A stretch of DNA of 13,548 nucleotides from the IMG/VR virus record IMGVR_UViG_2541047854_000008; one strand, given 5' to 3'. How positions within the stretch are numbered: position 1 is the stretch's first letter; every line of letters begins with the position of its first letter. Source of the stretch: a virus. Taxonomy: Duplodnaviria; Heunggongvirae; Uroviricota; Caudoviricetes. The notes under the pieces are model-generated. The model had not been told where the DNA came from. It saw only the letters and a list, made by a program, of their open reading frames with translations, and searched no databases. Below are positions 568-13,548 of this stretch, in pieces. Position numbers and translations under genes: made by a program.

Positions 568-1173
568 TTAGCGGTCATCATGTTCATCAGCGGGCTGGAC
601 GATTTTTTTATTGATGTCGTCTACTGGGTACGCCGCATTAAACGCAAGTTGAGTGTTTATCGCCGCTATCAGTTCATCCAGCGCGGCTGCTTTGTTCATG
701 GCTTTGATGATATCCCGTTTCAGGAAATCAACATGTCGGTTTTCCAGTTCCGGAAAACGCCGCTGCACCGACAGGGGGATCCCGTCGAGAATACTGGCAA
801 TTTCACCTGCGATCCGCGACAGCACGAAAGTACAGAATGCGGTTTCCACCACTTCAGCGGAGTCTCTGGCATTTTTCAGCTCCTGTGCGTCGGCCTGCGC
901 ACGCGTAAGTCGATGGCGTTCGTACTCAATAGTCCCTGGCTGGAGATCTGTCTCGCTGGCCTGCCGCAGTTCTTCAACTTCCCGGCGCAGCTTTTCGTTC
1001 TCAATTTCAGCATCCCTTTCGGCATACCATCTTATAACGGCGGCAGAGTCATAAAGCACCTCATTACCCTTGCCACCGCCTCGCAGAACGGGCATTCCCT
1101 GTTCCTGCCAGTTCTGAATGGTACGGATACTCGCACCGAAAATGTCAGCCAGCTGCTTTTTGTTGACTTCCAT
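568..1173 (-). CDS. nohD: Terminase small subunit Nu1 homolog (DNA-packaging protein), C-terminally altered
   Basis: The 201-aa translation matches lambda Nu1 essentially residue for residue through aa 169 (MEVNKKQLADIFGASIRTIQNWQEQGMPVLRGGGKGNEVLYDSAAV...KAMNKAAALDELI), then continues with 32 unrelated residues to a TAA. ATG at 1171-1173 is preceded by GGAATGAACA, as in lambda. No large-subunit (A) gene follows. Confidence 0.9.
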   Translation of the reverse strand: MEVNKKQLADIFGASIRTIQNWQEQGMPVLRGGGKGNEVLYDSAAVIRWYAERDAEIENEKLRREVEELRQASETDLQPGTIEYERHRLTRAQADAQELKNARDSAEVVETAFCTFVLSRIAGEIASILDGIPLSVQRRFPELENRHVDFLKRDIIKAMNKAAALDELIAAINTQLAFNAAYPVDDINKKIVQPADEHDDR

Positions 1174-1756: not shown

Positions 1757-2115
1757 ACATCCCGGTTTCTTCCACCATCGCACCGGAAAAGCGACTATGA
1801 GGGTAACCCTGCGTCTGTCAGCACAGTAAAACCCGGTGTGCATCGTTTTTGATTATTCCCGCACACTCACGCAGAAGGAATTCCCCGTCGGGCTACGGTC
1901 ATGGTTAATGCGGGAATACGGCGACGATACAGCGCAGCTAAAAGGGTAATGGACAGAAAGAGCGGTTTATTTCATTCCACAGGATTCTGAGTGCCCCCCT
2001 CCTCCAATAGGCTGAGCATCCACCTATATAGTTTTAATTTTCATCAATCCATTTAACTATCGTTTAATTGTTGTCACATAGGATTCTGCCGTTTTTAACA
2101 ATGCAGGATAATAAG

Positions 2116-2409
2116 ATGAAAAAAATGTTGTTTTCTGCCGCTCTGGCAATGCTTATTACAGGATGTGCTCAACAGACGTTTACTGTTGGAAACAAACCGA
2201 CAGCAGTAACACCAAAGGAAACCATCACCCATCACTTCTTCGTTTCGGGAATTGGACAGGAGAAAACTGTTGATGCAGCCAAAATTTGTGGCGGCGCAGA
2301 AAATGTTGTTAAAACAGAAACCCAGCAAACATTCGTAAATGGATTGCTCGGTTTTATTACTTTAGGCATTTATACTCCGCTGGAAGCGCGTGTGTATTGC
2401 TCACAATAA
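2116..2409 (+). CDS. borD: Bor lipoprotein (serum-resistance lipoprotein homolog), 97 aa with lipobox LITGC
   Basis: The ORF track starts at a TTG (2068). The Bor-like protein begins at ATG 2116 (MKKMLFSAALAMLITGCAQQTFTV...), preceded by AGGA 8 nt upstream, with a signal peptide and lipobox cysteine. Near-identical to lambda Bor and convergent with Rz as in lambda. Confidence 0.9.
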   Translation: MKKMLFSAALAMLITGCAQQTFTVGNKPTAVTPKETITHHFFVSGIGQEKTVDAAKICGGAENVVKTETQQTFVNGLLGFITLGIYTPLEARVYCSQ

Positions 2410-2440: not shown

Positions 2441-2902
2441 CTATCTGCACTGCTCATTAATATACTTCTGGGTTCCTTCCAGTTGTTTTTGCATAGTGAT
2501 CAGCCTCTCTCTGAGGGTGAAATAATCCCGTTCAGCGGTGTCTGCCAGTCGGGGGGAGGCTGCATTATCCACGCCGGAGGCGGTGGTGGCTTCACGCACT
2601 GACTGACAGACTGCTTTGATGTGCAACCGACGACGACCAGCGGCAACATCATCACGCAGAGCATCATTTTCAGCTTTCGCATTAGCTAACTCCTTCGTGT
2701 ATTTTTCATCCAGTGCAGCAACATCACGCTGGCGCATCTGCATGTCAGTAATTGCCGCGTTCGCCAGCTTCAGTTCTCTGGCATTTTTGTCGCGCTGGGC
2801 TTTGTAGGTAATGGCGTTATCACGGTAATGATTAACAGCCCATGACAGGCAGACGATGATGCAGATAACCAGAGCGGAGATAATCGCGGTTACTCTGTTC
2901 AT
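2441..2902 (-). CDS. rzpD: Rz inner-membrane spanin (i-spanin), 153 aa
   Basis: The translation from ATG 2900-2902 ([64 protein letters not shown]...) is near-identical to lambda Rz. The ATG overlaps the rrrD TGA (ATGA). The track's GTG start at 2914 is judged to be an upstream extension. Confidence 0.9.
2500..2682 (-). CDS. rzoD: Rz1 outer-membrane lipoprotein spanin (o-spanin), 60 aa, embedded in Rz in the +1 frame
   Basis: The translation [60 protein letters not shown] has a lipobox (VVGC) and proline-rich stretch and is near-identical to lambda Rz1. It lies wholly inside the Rz ORF. Confidence 0.85.
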
Positions 2903-3396
2903 TGCTGACCCCACAAACAGATTTCACGCTCAATCTCACGACGAGTCATGAGACCTTTCCATTGCTTACCGCCAGCATATGTCCAGCGACGTAGCTGATC
3001 ACATGCGCCTTTGATATCGCCCTGGTTTATTTTGCGAAGAAGCGTCGATGTTCTGAAATTGCCAGCGCCCACGTTGTAAACGAACGAGTAAAGAGCGCCG
3101 CGCGTTGTTTCCGGTATATCAACTTTTATGTACGGGTTAATTTGTCTGGCGACCGTGGCAAGGTCTTTATTCAGGAGGGCTTTGCATTCTGCTTTGGTAT
3201 ACGTTTTACCGAGCATGATGTCTTTTCCTGTATGCCCGTGACATACAGTCCATACACCAACAATATCTTTGTATGGTATGTAGCTGACACCTTCCAGACC
3301 ATCGTTACCACTTGGGCCAGTGATTAACACTGATGCTATAGCAATTGCTCCGCCACCAATAGCAGCAGCAACGGCTTTTCGTAATGATGGAGGCAT
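2899..3396 (-). CDS. rrrD: Phage lysozyme (endolysin, T4-lysozyme-like GH24) with N-terminal signal-anchor-release (SAR) segment, 165 aa
   Basis: The translation [75 protein letters not shown]... has a Gly/Ala-rich weakly hydrophobic N-terminus (SAR) followed by a lysozyme catalytic region, matching K-12 RrrD and phage-21 R-type endolysin. RBS GAGGTG upstream; the ATG overlaps the essD stop. Confidence 0.9.
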
Positions 3397-3611
3397 TATT
3401 CACCTCTCGCAGCCTTGCGCTTATCTTCTTTAATCTTGAAATAAAGGTTTGTCAGGTACGTCAGCAGGCCAAATACCAGGCTACCCAGCACACCTATTGC
3501 TGCCCACTGTGAGGGCGTGACTTTATCGAGCAGCTGTAAAAACCAGTAACCGGCACTACCTGCTGAGGTGCCATAGGCGACACCCGTTGTTAACTTATCC
3601 ATGGATTTCAT
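3396..3611 (-). CDS. essD: Phage 21 S-type pinholin with dual-start motif MKSM, 71 aa
   Basis: ATG at 3609-3611 is preceded by GAGGTGGGG. The protein [71 protein letters not shown] has two transmembrane segments and a charged C-terminus. Met1 and Met4 fit the holin/antiholin dual start. The track's TTG at 3656 is judged an extension. Confidence 0.85.
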
Positions 3612-3656
3612 AACCCCACCTCGCAGACAAAGCGGGTGTAAATTGAGGGAATACAA

Positions 3657-4199
3657 CGTATCGCAAAAAAGCAGAAACGTAACAGACTCGGAGTCAGTGA
3701 ATAACTCAGGTATTGAGTTATCAGCTAATATCGAGACTCAAAAAATGGAAAAACCAGCTCGACGGCGGGTTTAAGCTGTGTGACGAAGTAACCACTCTTA
3801 ACAGCATAACCAATTTTTTACGTACGTAAACCACTGAATGATATTTATGAGAATGCTACCGAGTGTTCAAAACACCACCACAAATATATAAGAAAACCTC
3901 AACAAATAACCAATAAATAATTTCCGGCGTTATTTTTAGTTGATTTAAATTAAACCACCGAATTATAGAACCCCCATAAATAACAGCCATTAATATAAAT
4001 TAGCTAATAGGTTTATTTTTGTTCAAATAAGAGCCATAAATAGGTTTCGATAGAAAAAGTTCAGATAAAAATAGAGATCTACTTCACAAATTAAATGAGA
4101 AACTAAAACTTACATCTTGAAATAATCACATTGATTAGATGAATATTTATCGCGCAGTGACATCATTTTTTAATAATAGTTCAAAAAAAAGGGCTCACG
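3657..4199 (+). promoter_or_regulatory. Long AT-rich upstream region of the porin gene, presumed nmpC promoter/regulatory region; exact promoter not assigned
   Basis: About 540 bp without a credible ORF, visibly AT-rich, directly upstream of the nmpC ATG. Contains the short direct repeat CCATAAATA at 3974-3982 and 4034-4042. Porin genes typically have extended upstream regulatory regions. Confidence 0.3.
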
Positions 4200-5282
4200 A
4201 TGAAAAAATTAACAGTGGCAATTTCTGCTGTAGCTGCATCAGTACTGATGGCGATGTCTGCTCAGGCAGCTGAAATTTATAATAAAGACAGTAACAAGCT
4301 GGATCTGTACGGGAAAGTTAATGCCAAGCACTACTTTTCCTCTAACGATGCAGATGATGGTGATACTACTTATGCCCGTCTTGGCTTCAAAGGTGAAACC
4401 CAAATCAACGATCAACTGACTGGTTTCGGTCAGTGGGAATATGAATTCAAAGGCAACCGCGCTGAATCTCAAGGTTCCTCCAAAGACAAAACCCGTCTTG
4501 CATTTGCAGGCCTGAAATTCGGTGACTACGGCTCAATCGATTACGGCCGTAACTACGGTGTAGCATACGACATCGGTGCGTGGACTGACGTTCTGCCAGA
4601 ATTCGGTGGCGATACCTGGACCCAAACAGATGTGTTCATGACTGGTCGCACCACTGGTGTTGCAACCTATCGTAACAACGACTTCTTTGGTCTGGTCGAT
4701 GGCCTGAACTTTGCTGCTCAGTATCAGGGTAAAAATGACCGCACTGACGTAACTGAAGCCAATGGTGATGGTTTCGGTTTCTCCACTACTTATGAGTATG
4801 AAGGATTCGGCGTGGGTGCAACCTATGCTAAATCAGATCGCACTGACGGTCAGGTCGCCTATGGTAAGAGCAAATTCAATGCCTCCGGCAAAAATGCGGA
4901 AGTATGGGCTGCAGGCCTGAAATATGATGCGAACAATATCTATCTGGCTACCACATATTCTGAAACTCAGAATATGACCGTTTTTGGTAATAACCATATT
5001 GCAAACAAAGCACAAAACTTTGAAGCAGTAGCACAATATCAGTTTGACTTCGGTCTGCGACCATCTGTTGCTTACCTTCAGTCAAAAGGTAAAGACCTTG
5101 GTGTTCATGGTGACCGAGACTTAGTCAAGTATGTCGATGTCGGTGCTACTTACTACTTTAATAAAAACATGTCCACTTTTGTTGATTACAAAATCAACTT
5201 AATTGACGATAGTAAGTTTACCAAAACAGCTGGTATTGATACCGACGACATCGTCGCTGTAGGTCTGGTGTATCAGTTCTAA
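4200..5282 (+). CDS. nmpC: Outer-membrane general porin of the OmpC/OmpF/PhoE family (NmpC/OmpD-like), 360 aa, intact
   Basis: Signal peptide [23 protein letters not shown] followed by AEIYNKD..., and it ends in the porin C-terminal motif ...VGLVYQF. Full length with no interruption. Oriented opposite to the flanking late genes. Confidence 0.9.
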
Positions 5283-5290
5283 TCTGATTA

Positions 5291-5330
5291 CGAAAAAGAT
5301 ATGTTGCGGGAGGCTTTGCCTCCCCAACAT
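5291..5330 (-). terminator. Stem-loop with T-tract on the - strand: candidate tR'-like intrinsic terminator; may also terminate convergent nmpC
   Basis: Imperfect inverted repeat ATGTTGCGGGAGGC / GCCTCCCCAACAT at 5301-5330. On the - strand the stem is followed by ATCTTTTT. It sits about 140-180 nt downstream of the Q stop and 10-20 nt after the nmpC stop. Confidence 0.4.
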
Positions 5331-5471
5331 ATAAGTGGCTCCCTCAAGCCACTTCCTTTAGAAGCACAACCTTGCTTCTAACTATATAAACCTTCTGTTA
5401 TATATTACCCTTTATTTTTGGGGGCGTCTCAACGCCCCATTTTTAATAATTTTTAGTAAACAATTGGCATA
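5331..5471 (-). promoter_or_regulatory. Region expected to carry the Q-dependent late promoter (pR') and Q-utilisation site; individual elements not resolved
   Basis: In lambdoid phages pR'/qut lie immediately downstream of Q (established knowledge). The region holds several short hairpins (AGAAGCA/TGCTTCT, AGTGGCT/AGCCACT, GGGGCG/CGCCCC) and no ORF. No confident -35/-10 assignment could be made by eye. Confidence 0.3.
5420..5445 (+). terminator. GC-rich hairpin GGGGCG-tctcaa-CGCCCC followed by ATTTTT on the + strand; terminator-like, function ambiguous
   Basis: Perfect 6-bp GC stem with a 6-nt loop and a T-run on the + strand. On the - strand it is followed by an A-run, so it is only terminator-like in the + direction (possible distal nmpC terminator) or is part of the late-promoter leader structure. 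Confidence 0.3.
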
Positions 5472-5855
5472 TTAATTAGAGTTATTAACAACGATATCCA
5501 TCTCTAACCGGATATCTAATGCCATTAACATCCCTTCAATTATGCCCTCAGCCTTCTGTAACCTTTTCCCGATATAACCATCAGAGCAGCAATGCTTACC
5601 TGCCAGTGACATGAATGTCATACCGACTACATAATAATCTACTAATAAATCGTGCAAATCGCTGTTGTTCTTTTTCAGACGGGCCATGCACCCGCAAATG
5701 ATCATCGCGTCATCGTCACAACATTGCGGGCGAGATTTTACTTTTGAAGGAATTAATCCCTTAAAACCGGCGGCAATGGACGACCAGGTCACATCTTCAT
5801 GATTATTAGCCGCCCACGCTCCCCAACGCTCAAGAACCATCTGAATATCACGCAT
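5472..5855 (-). CDS. quuD: Late-gene antiterminator Q homolog, 127 aa
   Basis: ATG at 5853-5855 with GGAG 9 nt upstream. The translation [60 protein letters not shown]... matches K-12 QuuD as recalled. The track's TTG at 5870 is judged an extension. Confidence 0.9.
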
Positions 5856-5940
5856 CAACTTACTCCACAAAAATCAGACCAGAACGCCAATTACAAGCAA
5901 AAATCAATAAAACAGTATTAGTTGATTGTTATCTCTGACT

Positions 5941-6081
5941 TCATACTCCTGCTCCTGTCAGGGTTTTGGCGTAATTCCTCAGTATTCGGTAATCGGTCAA
6001 AACAGAACCGGGGAAACGATATAAGCGCAGGCGCATCCAGCGGTGGCGAAGACGTTCTGCCATATAAGACTCAAACATCAT
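5941..6081 (-). CDS. ylcG: Small prophage protein YlcG-like, 46 aa; missing from the ORF track (under 60 aa)
   Basis: Hand translation of the - strand gives [46 protein letters not shown], with ATG at 6079-6081 overlapping the rusA TGA (ATGA) and stop at 5941-5943. Position between rusA and Q matches ylcG in DLP12. Confidence 0.7.
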
Positions 6082-7537: not shown

Positions 7538-8320
7538 TTAGGCGCAATACAAAGGATCATTAGCAGCTCTAATACCGCCCTGAATCGCAAGCCCTGTATG
7601 GCAATTTGACATTGAGCATGATTGCCATCTGTGCAAGGGACCTCCATTAATCGAAACTTCCAGCAGATCTTTATCTCCTTTCATCCTGACCCCTTCATAC
7701 AACATATCAAGACGCTCAACAATCAATCCTGTTGGAGGTTCCATTTTTAGAACGAGGGCAAACTCTCCTGGCCCACGTCGTATTGTTATACGCGGGCCGG
7801 TACACTCCACATCCCAATTGTCTGATTTAGCTTTCCATTCATTTTCATCTATCAGTAAAGTCTCCTTACCAATAGAATTACAGAAAATTCCTGATAAAAG
7901 CATCGGTCCATGTGGTATGGGTGAAGGTTTCACAGAAAGAATGGGTTGTTCGTTGACTACAATCAAATTTTGACAGTTATGAAACGTCACTCCTGCAAAT
8001 TTTACTGTTATAGGCTCATTATGAAAATCAAACATTTCATTTGCAAAACCAGCCTGTAAGCACTTGGGATTTCTGTCAGCTATTTCCACTGTCTGTGCTG
8101 AAAGTCTACCACGAGCTCTTTTTTGATTGCATTGGGAGCAAAGAAGTGTCATTCCATTCGGATCATGTATTTTGGCATCAACGAAGTCAGGTTTAAAATG
8201 CTCATAATCATAAAATCCAAATCCACAAATTACACAGCCAAAGCCGCACCTTTGCCTTATCTGACGTTTTATTGTCTCAGGTATTCTTCTTGAGAGCCCG
8301 TGTTTATTAATATTGTCCAT
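7538..8320 (-). CDS. Hypothetical 260-aa protein with an N-terminal zinc-finger HNH (beta-beta-alpha-Me) nuclease motif and an uncharacterised ~190-aa C-terminal domain
   Basis: ATG at 8318-8320 with an in-frame stop 5 codons upstream and only a weak SD. Residues 25-65 read RCGFGCVICGFGFYDYEHFKPDFVDAKIHDPNGMTLLCSQCNQ, i.e. C-x3-C-x2-C ... EH ... N ... C-x2-C-N, the spacing typical of HNH nucleases. The C-terminal region is not recognised. The gene is AT-rich relative to the lambda-like core. Confidence 0.6.
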   Translation of the reverse strand: MDNINKHGLSRRIPETIKRQIRQRCGFGCVICGFGFYDYEHFKPDFVDAKIHDPNGMTLLCSQCNQKRARGRLSAQTVEIADRNPKCLQAGFANEMFDFHNEPITVKFAGVTFHNCQNLIVVNEQPILSVKPSPIPHGPMLLSGIFCNSIGKETLLIDENEWKAKSDNWDVECTGPRITIRRGPGEFALVLKMEPPTGLIVERLDMLYEGVRMKGDKDLLEVSINGGPLHRWQSCSMSNCHTGLAIQGGIRAANDPLYCA

Positions 8321-8450
8321 ATGGTTAGTACGCTATAAGTTTGTTTCTATAATTTTACCACAATAGATAAGTTTGTATCAGAAATCGCTATATGGAGTGA
8401 GCGGAATATTTATATTATTCATGCAATTGCTCTCCCGTACGCAGCCCGCA

Positions 8451-8476
8451 CTTCCGTCATCGCAGAATGACGGAAG
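8451..8476 (-). promoter_or_regulatory. Perfect 10-bp inverted repeat (CTTCCGTCAT-cgcaga-ATGACGGAAG) in the intergenic region between the 107-aa and 260-aa genes; candidate operator or attenuator hairpin
   Basis: Read directly from the sequence. It lies 19 nt past the stop of the 107-aa ORF and upstream of an AT-rich stretch that contains an extended -10-like TGGTAAAAT (- strand, about 8350-8360). No U-tract follows on either strand. Confidence 0.3.
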
Positions 8477-8494
8477 CCTTACTAACTAGCGCCT

Positions 8495-8818
8495 TTATTG
8501 AAACAGATTCTGAGGTAAATGCGGCAATACTTGACTCCACTTATCATCCTGCCACGGCTGAAGTTTTACATGTGCCGTTTCTCGGGCGAGGATTGCTCGC
8601 GCTCTGTTGAGTCTCTGGGGATATTCTTGCTCGATGGAAGTGAAGTGACCAGCCTCACCATGCTCCGCATCCTGAAGAAGATGAGTAACGTTCTGGTAGG
8701 CAATTAACATCACATTCCCTGCTCGCCATAACCAGGCGAGTGTGCAAAGTTCGTTATCAGTGAATTGTTTTGTGATTGGGAATTGTTGAACTGCTAGAAC
8801 GGGAACGCCAGCATCCAT
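8495..8818 (-). CDS. Hypothetical protein, 107 aa, no recognised family; upstream partner of the HNH-motif gene
   Basis: ATG at 8816-8818 with an in-frame TAG 3 codons upstream and AGGGA 8 nt upstream. Translation MDAGVPVLAVQQFPITKQFTDNELCTLAWLWRAGNVMLIAYQNVTHLLQDAEHGEAGHFTSIEQEYPQRLNRARAILARETAHVKLQPWQDDKWSQVLPHLPQNLFQ. Coding status rests on ORF length and position only. Confidence 0.45.
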   Translation of the reverse strand: MDAGVPVLAVQQFPITKQFTDNELCTLAWLWRAGNVMLIAYQNVTHLLQDAEHGEAGHFTSIEQEYPQRLNRARAILARETAHVKLQPWQDDKWSQVLPHLPQNLFQ

Positions 8819-11111: not shown

Positions 11112-11414
11112 TCATTGTGTACCCATTGATGTTCTTTTATATACCCTCAATACGCGTTTCATCGCGGCACTCTGGCGACACTCCTTAAAAATCAGATTCG
11201 TGCTCACCTTTCCTTCCCGTTCTTCTCTGGTAGCGAACCGGTAATACACCGTTCGCCAGACCTTACCATCAACGACCAGGATTCCTGCCCGCGCCATTTT
11301 AGCCGCAGCCTGATTTATGCTGGTTACGGTTGCGCCTGTTACCGCGGCAACGTCCTGTGCACAGAAGCTCTTATGCGTCCCCAGGTAATGAATAATTGCC
11401 TCTTTGCCCGTCAT
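11112..11414 (-). CDS. renD: Ren protein homolog (lambda Ren, protects against Rex exclusion), 100 aa
   Basis: The translation MTGKEAIIHYLGTHKSFCAQDVAAVTGATVTSINQAAAKMARAGILVVDGKVWRTVYYRFATREEREGKVSTNLIFKECRQSAAMKRVL... is recognisably lambda Ren. The ATG overlaps the P stop (ATGA), as in lambda. Confidence 0.85.
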   Translation of the reverse strand: MTGKEAIIHYLGTHKSFCAQDVAAVTGATVTSINQAAAKMARAGILVVDGKVWRTVYYRFATREEREGKVSTNLIFKECRQSAAMKRVLRVYKRTSMGTQ

Positions 11415-12112
11415 ACACTTGCTCCTTTCAGTCCGAACTTAGCTTTAATTTCTGCGATCTTCGCCAGAGCCTGTGCACGATTTAGAGGTCTACCGCCCAT
11501 AACAGGAAGTTGTTTTACTGGTTCAGGTATCGTCTCACCACGGTTAATTCGCGCTGTCATACAGGTCAGTTCATCGGCAGCCTTGCGCCGTAATTCCGCG
11601 TCAGTCAGCGCATTGGCCCGCATGTTCTGGTACAAGTTGGTAACCAACCAGTAATGCGCGTTCGATTTCCACGGATAAGACTCTGCATCCGGATACAGGC
11701 CACGCTTCCGGCAATACTCGTAAACCATATCAACCAGCTCGCTGACGTTTGGCAGCCCGGCGTTAACAGATGCTTCTTCCCGGCACCAGGCGACAAACTG
11801 CCCGGGTGATGGCAGGAATGGTCGATTCTGCCGACGGGCTACGCGCATTCCAGCGTTAACCTGTTCCATTGTGGTGATCCCGTTTTCCCGGAAAGCCAGA
11901 ACCCACTGGCGGCGGATTTCGTTCAGTTCATTCTGGTCACGGTTAGCCAGGCTCGCCGGGAAAGTTGCCAGTAACTGGCTGAACACACCGTTGATGATCT
12001 GCGCTACCTGCTGTACCTGTGGCTTTTCGTCGTACTGTTCCGGCATGTTGTTGGCGATCCGGCGCATCTGCTCACAGTCAAAGTTAACCATCTGTGCGGC
12101 GATGTTTTTCAT
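11411..12112 (-). CDS. P: Replication protein P (DnaB helicase loader) homolog, 233 aa, apparently full length
   Basis: The translation MKNIAAQMVNFDCEQMRRIANNMPEQYDEKPQVQQVAQIINGVFSQLLATFPASLANRDQNELNEIRRQWVLAFRENGITTMEQVNAGMRVARRQNRPFLPSPGQFVAWCREEASV... is near-identical to lambda P as recalled. The start ATG overlaps the stop of the upstream O-frame remnant (ATGA), as in lambda. Confidence 0.9.
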   Translation of the reverse strand: MKNIAAQMVNFDCEQMRRIANNMPEQYDEKPQVQQVAQIINGVFSQLLATFPASLANRDQNELNEIRRQWVLAFRENGITTMEQVNAGMRVARRQNRPFLPSPGQFVAWCREEASVNAGLPNVSELVDMVYEYCRKRGLYPDAESYPWKSNAHYWLVTNLYQNMRANALTDAELRRKAADELTCMTARINRGETIPEPVKQLPVMGGRPLNRAQALAKIAEIKAKFGLKGASV

Positions 12113-12384: not shown

Positions 12385-13548
12385 ATGTCACTCTTCCGCA
12401 GAAATGAAATATGGTATGCCTCGTATTCGCTCCCGGGCGGGAAACGAATTAAGGAATCTCTTGGCACAAAGGACAAGCGGCAAGCTCAGGAGTTGCACGA
12501 CAAGCGAAAAGCAGAACTCTGGCGAGTAGAAAAGCTAGGGGATTTACCTGATGTCACTTTTGAAGAGGCCTGCCTAAGATGGCTTGAGGAAAAAGCTGAT
12601 AAAAAATCTCTCGATTCAGATAAAAGCCGGATTGAGTTCTGGCTTGAACATTTTGAGGGTATAAGGCTTAAAGATATCTCGGAGGCAAAGATTTACTCTG
12701 CTGTAAGCAGAATGCATAACAGAAAGACGAAAGAAATATGGAAACAGAAAGTTCAGGCCGCCATCAGGAAAGGTAAAGAACCGCCTGTTTATGAACCAAA
12801 GCCAGTATCAACTCAGACAAAGGCAAAGCATCTTGCCATGATAAAGGCCATTCTCCGTGCTGCAGAACGCGACTGGAAGTGGCTGGAAAAAGCGCCTGTC
12901 ATCAAGATACCAGCGGTCAGAAACAAGCGAGTCAGATGGCTGGAAAAGGAGGAAGCAAAACGCCTTATTGATGAGTGCCCCGAACCACTGAAATCTGTCG
13001 TCAAGTTTGCGCTGGCAACTGGTCTGAGAAAGTCGAACATCATAAATCTGGAATGGCAACAAATCGACATGCAGCGACGAGTTGCCTGGGTGAATCCAGA
13101 AGAGAGCAAATCAAACCGCGCCATTGGTGTGGCGCTGAACGATACCGCCTGTAAAGTGTTGCGTGATCAAATAGGCAAGCATCACAAATGGGTGTTTGTA
13201 CATACCAAGGCGGCTAAGCGAGCAGATGGAACATCAACGCCTGCGGTCAGGAAGATGCGCATCGACAGCAAGACATCATGGCTATCAGCTTGTCGTCGTG
13301 CAGGAATTGAAGATTTCCGTTTCCATGACCTCAGACACACCTGGGCAAGCTGGCTGATTCAGTCAGGCGTCCCATTATCAGTGCTTCAGGAAATGGGCGG
13401 ATGGGAGTCCATAGAAATGGTTCGTAGGTATGCTCACCTTGCGCCTAATCATTTGACAGAGCATGCGAGGAAAATAGACGACATTTTTGGTGATAATGTC
13501 CCAAATATGTCCCACTCTGGAATTATGGAGGATATAAAGAAGGCGTAA
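12385..13548 (+). CDS. intD: Tyrosine site-specific integrase (phage integrase family), 387 aa
   Basis: ATG at 12385 preceded by GAGGAAAG. The C-terminal catalytic region has the R...HxxR...Y signature ([15 protein letters not shown]...VRRYAHL). Length and sequence match K-12 IntD as recalled. The stop codon is the last 3 nt of the window, so the attachment site or tRNA is outside the window. Confidence 0.9.

Follow-up and report, generated by a model that had tools for sequence, protein, structure and literature searches.

In the prophage analysed here, a porin gene lies on the opposite strand between the gene of the antiterminator Q and the lysis genes, raising the question whether late transcription has to pass through this gene to reach the lysis cassette. 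The first-pass annotation of the locus had proposed exactly this, i.e. Q-antiterminated transcription crossing about 1.1 kb of porin gene in antisense orientation. We analysed the locus within a stretch of 13,548 nucleotides (IMG/VR record IMGVR_UViG_2541047854_000008, hereafter the window), whose prophage, a defective lambdoid one of the DLP12 type at argU, lacks the immunity region and the structural genes and is interrupted by ISAs1.

An intact porin gene between Q and the lysis cassette

The gene order agrees with the first description, according to which nmpC lies between Q and the pinholin gene on the other strand: nmpC is convergent with quuD and divergent from essD. The interval originally assigned to the porin, 3657-5330, exceeds the gene: it additionally covers 543 bp of intergenic DNA upstream of nmpC and, at the other end, the first ipeX hairpin.

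5472-5855, minus strand: quuD, Q antiterminator of the Q21/Q933W family, 127 aa (Pfam Phage_antitermQ PF06530, E 9.7e-54)
4200-5282, plus strand: intact nmpC/lc-type general porin gene, 360 aa (profile, structure-chain and PHROG matches)
4200-4268, plus strand: signal peptide of nmpC (identical to the 23-aa signal peptide in the PA-2 lc annotation)
3832-4199, plus strand: AT-rich upstream regulatory region of nmpC, 28-37% G+C (composition; alignment with PA-2 and K-12)
3396-3611, minus strand: essD, S21-type pinholin with dual start (MKSM), opening the lysis cassette (Pfam P21 holin S, 3.5e-35)
2899-3396: rrrD, in the lysis cassette headed by essD
2441-2914: rzpD, in the same cassette

The porin ORF is complete. 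Residues 29-360 of NmpC cover positions 1-337 of the 337 positions of Pfam Porin_1 (PF00267; E 1.9e-151), the protein aligns end to end with PHROG 410, and residues 24-360 show full-span sequence alignments to the solved chains of OmpC, OmpK36, OmpF and PhoE. With 521 bits NmpC scores above the cut-off of the NCBIfam OmpC subfamily (484) and stays under the equivalog cut-offs for PhoE and OmpF. These matches identify it as a general bacterial porin of the OmpC/OmpF/PhoE type; the three named proteins belong to the same family but are chromosomally encoded, whereas NmpC is phage-borne. The protein carries a cleavable N-terminal signal peptide, as judged by the match to the PA-2 Lc annotation, and ends in VGLVYQF with the aromatic last residue of a β-signal, so that the earlier description of a full-length gene with signal peptide and C-terminal porin motif holds. 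PGAP labels the gene 'ompC', a name hiding the presence of an extra porin. PADLOC returned no match for the porin, nor for the 260-aa and 107-aa ORFs of the window.

At the DNA level nmpC is 100% identical to the annotated porin gene of E. coli FORC_082. Identity to PA-2 Lc and K-12 NmpC, the position between Q and S and the opposite orientation are all found in the window, and the synteny of the porin module is shared with PA-2, K-12 and 36 phage records, PA-2 (J02580) being among the latter. PA-2 has the same order of R, S, opposite-strand porin and Q, an identical signal peptide, a protein with 91% identity, a collinear upstream region and a 3' spacer differing by a single base. The differences are a length of 365 aa for Lc compared to 360 aa, short patches, probably surface loops, that hold substitutions and two small indels, and the state of the phage, PA-2 being active and the window's prophage defective. 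The DLP12 prophage of K-12 shares the argU locus, the neighbours quuD, essD, rrrD and rzpD, the ipeX region and the late promoter block described below. The inactivation of the K-12 copy by IS5, which the first-pass annotation had mentioned, is confirmed by NC_000913.3, where IS5B disrupts the pseudogene b0553 at 58 nt from the gene end, leaving a 3' fragment of this length, whereas the window's copy is uninterrupted. By identity and position, we assign the gene to the PA-2 lc/K-12 nmpC porin, of which it represents an intact allele. Salmonella OmpD is described as a relative of NmpC in the literature.

The porin gene is followed by ipeX

5283-5445, plus strand: ipeX region, 3' tail of the nmpC transcript with five hairpins (one base differing from K-12/PA-2 over the 189-bp spacer)
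5421-5444, plus strand: intrinsic terminator of the nmpC-IpeX transcript (terminator scan; -13.9 kcal/mol, z -3.4, followed by UUUUU)
5292-5332, minus strand: terminator-like hairpin with U run, in the orientation of Q (-22.3 kcal/mol, z -6.3, followed by CUUUUUC)

The spacer between nmpC and Q contains the ipeX sequence of K-12 and PA-2 directly 3' of the porin stop codon, with one mismatch in 189 bp, and as in DLP12 and PA-2 ipeX ends at an intrinsic terminator; no further difference is detectable at the sequence level. The region folds with -62.9 kcal/mol (z -10.3), and the distance of about 163 nt from the nmpC stop codon to the terminator fits the published IpeX, an sRNA of 167 nt cut from the porin transcript and reducing OmpC and OmpF (PMC12197685, PMC5069750, PMC8065619). 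A scan of the whole window at Rfam gathering thresholds gave no match, which is uninformative on IpeX because Rfam holds no model for this RNA. The first-pass annotation had considered that a phage-borne porin can alter the composition of the outer membrane; the published work on PA-2 Lc, which is produced in the lysogen and replaces or lowers OmpC, and on IpeX bears this out (PMC12197685, PMC5069750, PMC8065619). As the spacer is almost identical to the ipeX locus, whose RNA lowers OmpC and OmpF, the altered receptor composition is already published biology.

A gap of 27 nt separates the nmpC-IpeX terminator from the stop codon of Q. On the minus strand the hairpin 5332-5292, which ends about 10 nt ahead of the stop codon of nmpC, is the likely end of the Q transcript. 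The convergent Q and nmpC-IpeX transcripts are thus predicted to overlap at their 3' ends by about 150 nt, which differs from the interference first proposed. This overlap within the 189-bp spacer could couple porin/IpeX expression to the dosage of Q. In an intact phage, N-modified early transcripts through Q could continue antisense into nmpC.

The late promoter homologue lies beyond the porin gene

QuuD shares 79% identity with Q of 933W-type Stx phages (phage OP797663.1), the similarity ending at residue 120-126, and it distantly matches the Q21 structures 6P1B and 6JNX (E 7.6e-8); the naming of the Q21/Q933W family follows bioRxiv 10.1101/651190. The longest quuD ORF begins at a TTG at 5870. 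The late cassettes of the 933W-type Stx phages resemble the window both in the Q family and in a promoter-leader-terminator block, which spans 3830-3745 (minus strand) between nmpC and essD, i.e. inside the 543-bp intergenic region upstream of nmpC.

3803-3830, minus strand: homologue of the 933W-type late promoter pR' (aligned to the promoter annotated in OP797663.1)
3740-3802, minus strand: pR' leader with tR'-type hairpin (conserved motif, hairpin, U runs)
4156-4182, minus strand: sigma-E-like promoter motifs, GAACTA at 4182-4177, 16-nt spacer, TCACT at 4160-4156 (read from the sequence)

The pR' homologue consists of the -35 element TTTACG (3830-3825), a 16-nt spacer and the -10 element TATGCT (3808-3803). 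It is followed by the leader motif TAAGAGTGGTTAC at 3800-3788, being invariant across distant Q relatives, by the tR'-type hairpin at 3769-3754 and by U runs at 3753-3749 and 3745-3740. The window's stretch 3749-3831 matches 355 phage records and, among the matches listed, lies directly after Q in Stx phages; in OP797663.1 the matching stretch spans the annotated pR' promoter and the terminator. The GenBank feature of OP797663.1 underlying the assignment carries the label 'putative'. In a four-way alignment the homology runs from the -35 element to the T run, while the flanks are unrelated. By homology, a promoter followed by a terminator lies upstream of the late genes, although the hairpin of the window's allele is weak: as in PA-2 it contains a mismatch, and with -6.7 kcal/mol (z -1.0) it folds no better than shuffled sequences, so that termination here may be weak. 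K-12 carries the GCGGG haplotype with the stronger hairpin instead of the GCTGG of the window. The consensus promoter scan showed no promoter in either intergenic region flanking nmpC; it did not flag pR' because no more than 8 of the 12 hexamer positions agree with the consensus.

In Stx phages the block begins 44 nt after Q codon 126, whereas in the window a 1.65-kb cassette separates Q from pR', with about 1,640 nt between the Q stop codon and the block. As Q works in trans, this gap alters the layout but not the expected mechanism. The leader motif was also examined in 99 IMG/VR loci, all having a PF06530-type Q upstream on the same strand: the distance from Q to the motif is 41-75 nt in 24 of them and at least 600 nt, with cargo between, in the other 75.

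This comparison bears on the λ-like arrangement implied by the original proposal, in which the late promoter adjoins Q and the Q-modified RNA polymerase reads ipeX and the 1.1-kb porin gene in antisense orientation to reach essD, colliding with nmpC transcription. λ-type cassettes indeed have pR' directly after Q (bioRxiv 10.1101/651190), the minus-strand hairpin at 5332-5292 could pass for tR', and Lambda_ev245 shows a promoter- and terminator-like stretch after a related Q, followed by an opposite-strand lipocalin gene, suggesting that a layout with a Q-adjacent promoter may exist elsewhere. Against this arrangement in the window, the promoter scan revealed no promoter-like site on the minus strand of 5283-5471. 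The spacer is the ipeX locus, matching only 36 phage records, the same number as the whole porin module, and is not shared by Q relatives that lack the porin. The pR'-leader-tR' block found in the nearest relatives of Q sits at 3830-3745, and throughout the 99 loci it is this block and not the Q-adjacent DNA that remains upstream of the late genes. We consider a Q-adjacent late promoter very improbable. The hairpin 5332-5292 was rejected as tR', there being no promoter before it and the spacer belonging to the porin cassette.

A second promoter on the essD side

According to PMC7918800, citing Rueggeberg 2013 and 2015, essD is controlled by Q and RpoE. We back-calculated the transcription start of the published essDp from its -121..+650 amplicon and the respective primers, which map to window 4272 and 3491-3504 and place +1 near 4150. 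This start lies between the porin coding sequence and essD, some 50 bp ahead of the first nmpC codon, and the sigma-E-like motifs at 4182-4156 fit it. A transcript from essDp would be antisense to the promoter/5' UTR of nmpC, not to its coding sequence.

The reported control by Q and RpoE together with these motifs (GAACTA-N16-TCACT) could mean that essDp mainly drives the lysis cassette, with QuuD acting there and the 933W-like block being a relic. We regard this as doubtful. The reporter fragment also holds the whole pR' block, so that a Q dependence seen with this fragment cannot separate the two promoters; the mechanism of the Q21 family uses a sigma-70 pause element (bioRxiv 10.1101/651190); and the block is conserved at 97.6-100% across 79 IMG/VR loci compared to 83.8-100% for the AT-rich region containing essDp. 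The two promoters are not mutually exclusive.

Because the pR'/tR' homologue and essDp are both located on the essD side, late transcripts would begin past the porin coding sequence under either promoter. The antisense passage proposed at first is thus not borne out, and transcription of the lysis genes probably need not cross nmpC. We consider it quite likely, on the basis of the sequence comparisons, that the DLP12-type porin-ipeX cassette is separate from lysis transcription, which would start downstream of the porin coding sequence.

Conservation and expression of the porin module

Intact copies were counted with a 200-bp query spanning the K-12 IS5 insertion site, and 1803 of 5426 complete E. 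coli genomes showed an uninterrupted nmpC 3' end contiguous with ipeX. The porin module is covered to at least 80% in 2385 of the 5426 genomes, a number which is not readable as 'intact' because the search joins pieces across an IS5 and may count IS5-split copies. Among the IMG/VR loci, 79 of 79 carry an intact porin ORF, and these encode 13 protein alleles. Their variation is confined to short patches between flanks conserved at 99-100%, arguing for selection on an expressed surface protein.

This pattern has to be weighed against the reading that nmpC is intact yet silent in the window's strain, a passenger with no effect on the envelope. The upstream DNA has only 28.5% G+C (3801-4200), typical of xenogeneic silencing, parts of the literature group nmpC among 'quiescent' porin genes, and the prophage is defective as described above. 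The ORF integrity in all related loci and the patchy variation speak against silence, and the quiescence reported for K-12 stems, in the same parts of the literature, from the IS5 insertion, which is absent in the window. A silent porin therefore appears unlikely to us. The consensus scan and inspection by eye located no nmpC promoter in the upstream region; by the PA-2/K-12 alignment, the annotated CRP site of PA-2 corresponds to 4071-4091 there.

The junction of Q and pR' as a possible cargo slot

Comparison of the loci shows the position between Q and pR' being occupied by at least 22 unrelated gene sets, mostly in opposite orientation. The commonest occupant in the loci sampled is nmpC-ipeX; others include candidate defence genes, e.g. 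PADLOC PDC-S20, PDC-M68A, PDC-M53A and PDC-S42. Tentatively, and with somewhat less than an even chance in our estimation, the junction between the Q end and the pR' -35 element in Q21/Q933W-type lambdoid phages could be a dedicated cargo slot, whose occupants, including candidate anti-phage defence genes, stay outside the Q-dependent late operon; nmpC-ipeX would then be readable as defence cargo remodelling receptors. The layout is not universal, as Lambda_ev245 lacks the leader motif and seemingly has its own promoter-like stretch beside Q. In the Stx phages the moron stx follows pR' in the same orientation and is under Q control. In contrast, the porin cassette of the window lies upstream of pR' on the opposite strand, suggesting that it is probably Q-independent.

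A model for the locus and its implications

These data support a model according to which nmpC, its AT-rich upstream region and the ipeX tail would make up a self-contained cassette for lysogenic conversion, about 1.65 kb long (3832-5471), which fills the slot from the 3' end of Q to the pR' -35 element on the strand opposite to the phage genes. The lysogen would transcribe this cassette from its own putative promoter, the regulatory region with the CRP site facing pR' and essDp divergently, and the transcript would terminate at 5421-5444. For the window's strain we infer that it yields the NmpC porin and a processed IpeX RNA lowering OmpC and OmpF, thereby changing the set of surface receptors, which is the lysogenic-conversion phenotype described for PA-2 (PMC12197685, PMC5069750, PMC8065619). 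Transcripts of the lysis cassette would start at the pR' homologue (3830-3803, start site about 3797) and/or at the sigma-E promoter near 4150, with QuuD, acting in trans, helping them past the tR'-type hairpin at 3769-3754. Promoter choice and Q dependence in this strain are likewise inferred, whereas the analysis directly shows the sequence identities, the gene layout, the conservation and the integrity of the ORF.

The nmpC/lc porin, its position between Q and S in DLP12 and PA-2, the IS5 inactivation in K-12 and the IpeX tail are already known. The porin arrangement is ordinary and, intact copies of nmpC being common in E. coli, adds little as a discovery. Strains like that of the window are likely to produce an additional general porin together with an sRNA lowering OmpC and OmpF, both of which bear on phage adsorption and antibiotic permeability. 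The late promoter of DLP12-type prophages should be sought beyond the porin gene and not beside Q, which removes the supposed antisense conflict, and the junction of Q and pR' offers a place to search for prophage cargo, candidate defence genes included.

The prophage and its porin gene

The open reading frames and Pfam matches of the window identify a DLP12-type lambdoid prophage lying in the orientation opposite to that in K-12, with the following features, listed from right to left:

12385-13548, plus strand: intD, the rightmost gene
11411-12112, minus strand: replication-P remnant
between the replication-P remnant and quuD: emrE, then the ybcK recombinase gene, then rusA
5472-5855, minus strand: quuD, encoding the Q antiterminator
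4200-5282, plus strand: porin gene
3396-3611, minus strand: essD, the S21-type pinholin gene
2899-3396, minus strand: rrrD
2441-2914, minus strand: rzpD
2068-2409, plus strand: bor/iss, a Bor-family lipoprotein gene (RefSeq name iss, increased serum survival)
left of bor/iss: ylcI
568-1173, minus strand: Nu1-type small terminase gene
10-234: tail (C-terminus) of an ISAs1 transposase gene

The window prophage contains neither an immunity region nor structural genes and is therefore defective. Positions 3300-5950 are 100% identical to E. coli FORC_082, in which the element adjoins tRNA-Arg and fimZ, as K-12 DLP12 does. An ISAs1-family element cuts the prophage after the small terminase gene (568-1173), and in FORC_082 the same ISAs1 copy stands between the prophage and a T6SS vgrG/Rhs region. 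Downstream of the lysis genes, bor/iss is a second opposite-strand moron of the same prophage. Between ybcK and ybcN, where K-12 has ybcL and ybcM, the minus strand (7538-8818) encodes a 260-aa ORF with CxxC pairs, assigned to PHROG 6544 (unknown function) and without a match in Pfam, NCBIfam or PADLOC, and a 107-aa P22AR C-terminal domain protein.

The first-pass annotation had described a full-length nmpC with signal peptide and C-terminal porin motif, and this is borne out: the ORF is complete, and its product spans the Pfam Porin_1 profile in full (E 1.9e-151) and matches PHROG 410 over the entire length. Residues 1-23 are identical to the annotated signal peptide of Lc, the porin of phage PA-2, residues 24-360 can be aligned from one end to the other with the solved chains of OmpC, OmpK36, OmpF and PhoE, and the protein ends in VYQF. 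PA-2 Lc is 91% identical to the window porin, the differences being confined to a few short patches. The gene does lie between Q and the pinholin on the opposite strand, convergent with quuD and divergent from essD, and the K-12 copy, described there as inactivated by IS5, is indeed a pseudogene split by IS5B 58 nt before the gene end. RefSeq/PGAP names the phage porin 'ompC: porin OmpC' in all genomes listed; it passes the OmpC subfamily model only, and this label conceals the identity of the gene as the prophage gene nmpC/lc.

A probable late promoter on the lysis side of the porin gene

QuuD is a member of Pfam PF06530 (Q21/Q933W family) and shares 79% identity with the Q protein of a 933W-type Stx phage across residues 1-126, where the similarity ends. 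Window 3749-3831 matches 355 phage records and stands directly after Q in the Stx phages listed; in one of them (OP797663.1) the matched stretch spans the annotated pR' promoter and the following terminator, both features being annotated as putative. Alignment of the window with K-12, this Stx phage and phage PhiR55_1 delimits a block of ~85 bp with unrelated flanks, comprising on the minus strand:

3830-3825, minus strand: -35 element TTTACG, at the start of the block
3808-3803, minus strand: -10 element TATGCT
3800-3788, minus strand: invariant leader TAAGAGTGGTTAC
3769-3740, minus strand: CCCGC..GCGGG hairpin and T run, at the end of the block

The promoter hexamers agree with the consensus at only 8/12 positions. 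In the Stx phages listed the block starts 44 nt past Q codon 126, whereas in the IMG/VR porin loci it starts 1,638-1,657 nt past the end of Q, and the window has the same distance. A promoter scan of the Q-nmpC spacer found no promoter-like site on the minus strand, and this spacer occurs only in its 36 matching phage records, the same number as the whole porin module. The porin cassette therefore appears to separate Q from its promoter rather than the promoter from the lysis genes.

The published sigma-E promoter of essD, essDp, leads to the same side. In PMC7918800 a reporter fragment is numbered -121 to +650 from the essD promoter that Rueggeberg et al. 2015 described. With its primers at window 4272 and 3491-3504, +1 falls near 4150 on the minus strand. 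This strand carries sigma-E-like motifs (GAACTA, 4182-4177; 16-nt spacer; TCACT, 4160-4156) that fit the back-calculated start site; they are found 18-44 bp before the start codon of nmpC, which is encoded on the opposite strand. Like the pR' block, essDp is situated between the porin coding sequence and essD. Since the reporter fragment includes the whole pR' block, the published Q dependence cannot tell pR' from essDp. With either promoter, Q-dependent transcription could reach the lysis genes without traversing the 1.1-kb porin gene, and the comparative evidence does not support the proposal that late transcription reads antisense through it. The remaining possible interplay is of two kinds: a sigma-E transcript from the motifs at 4156-4182 would be antisense to the nmpC promoter or 5' UTR before running on through the pR' block, and, in an intact phage, N-modified early transcripts might continue past Q into nmpC.

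In the window and PA-2 the 3' arm of the tR'-type hairpin (window 3754-3769) reads GCTGG instead of GCGGG, the two haplotypes occurring at ~39:38 (GCTGG:GCGGG) among the IMG/VR loci. For the window the predicted fold is -6.7 kcal/mol (z -1.0); the corresponding hairpins of K-12 and the Stx phage reach -12.0 (z -3.3) and -14.8, respectively. With the weak GCTGG form, transcription might leak into the lysis genes independently of Q. Two CRP sites annotated in the PA-2 record map to window 3776-3796, within the pR' leader, and 4071-4091.

IpeX and the convergent 3' ends

The 189-bp spacer between the nmpC and Q stop codons differs from K-12 and PA-2 by a single loop base. Its plus strand folds into five hairpins (-62.9 kcal/mol, z -10.3), the last of which (5421-5438), together with the U run after it, forms a terminator ~163 nt from the nmpC stop codon, fitting the published 167-nt IpeX RNA. 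IpeX is part of the porin transcript, is driven by the phage porin promoter and lowers OmpC and OmpF (PMC12197685, PMC5069750, PMC8065619); the suggestion that a phage-borne porin could change receptor composition is thus already established biology for the nmpC-ipeX cassette (PMC12197685, PMC5069750, PMC8065619).

On the minus strand, a hairpin beside nmpC (5332-5299; -22.3 kcal/mol), followed by CUUUUUC, probably represents the end of the Q transcript, in which case the convergent Q and nmpC-ipeX transcripts would overlap by ~150 nt. Terminator-like ends of both units lie within one 189-bp spacer (window 5292-5445), and the Q 3' UTR and IpeX are predicted to be complementary over ~150 nt, making RNA-RNA coupling possible.

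Intact porin alleles are widespread

The 2.65-kb Q-porin-holin module is present in some form in 4630/5426 complete E. coli genomes and covered to at least 80% in 2385/5426, a count that may include IS5-split copies as nearby pieces were joined; a 200-bp query spanning the K-12 insertion site has an uninterrupted match in 1803 complete genomes. Phage records with the whole module number 36; the original PA-2 lc entry is one of them, and many others are inducible lambdoid phages. Of 80 IMG/VR loci whose Q is nearly identical, 79 have enough sequence, and all of these carry an intact porin ORF; the encoded proteins fall into 13 alleles (360 or 365 aa). Compared with the window, the DNA of nmpC has a median identity of 89.8%, whereas Q reaches 99.7%, the promoter block 98.9% and essD 100%; the variable porin residues are grouped in short patches. 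Intactness and patchy variation together look like the pattern of an expressed surface protein, and the K-12 pseudogene is the exception.

Phage 434B (OL657227.1), a laboratory isolate of phage 434, has acquired the K-12 DLP12 Q-nmpC::IS5-S segment, annotated as 'region of 434 nonhomology', showing the module being exchanged by recombination; this phage genome was recovered with ~2.9 kb separating Q from the promoter block.

The observation of an intact porin is correct but ordinary: nmpC, its position, the IS5-disrupted K-12 allele and the effect on other porins are already known, and intact copies are widespread.

A proposed cargo slot at the Q-pR' junction

Scanning IMG/VR for the leader motif, as a sample of 120 stretches and not a census, yielded at least 99 loci with a PF06530-type Q upstream on the same strand. 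Among the 99 loci listed, the Q proteins are 40-100% identical to QuuD; 24 loci have a gap of 41-75 nt between Q and the block, and the other 75 one of at least 600 nt (600-2,500 nt). The inserts of these 75 fall into at least 22 clusters by longest ORF, which lies on the opposite strand in 69/75 loci and 20/22 clusters. The porin is the insert in 33 of the 75; other cargo includes a KAP-family NTPase matching the PADLOC candidate PDC-S20 over its full length (E 1.4e-177), matches to the candidates PDC-M68A (an HNH protein), PDC-M53A and PDC-S42, NA37/YejK-like gene pairs, an alpha/beta hydrolase and a lipoprotein. PhiR55_1 shares the layout with a 148-aa lipoprotein-like ORF as cargo, whereas Lambda_ev245 lacks the leader motif, and its promoter may adjoin Q with a lipocalin gene after it.

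Reviews mention only recognised phage immunity hot spots in general terms. The pattern goes beyond what the first-pass annotation had reported and is the only modestly new element of this analysis: the porin-IpeX cassette would be one occupant of a recurrent opposite-strand cargo slot at the junction of Q and pR'.
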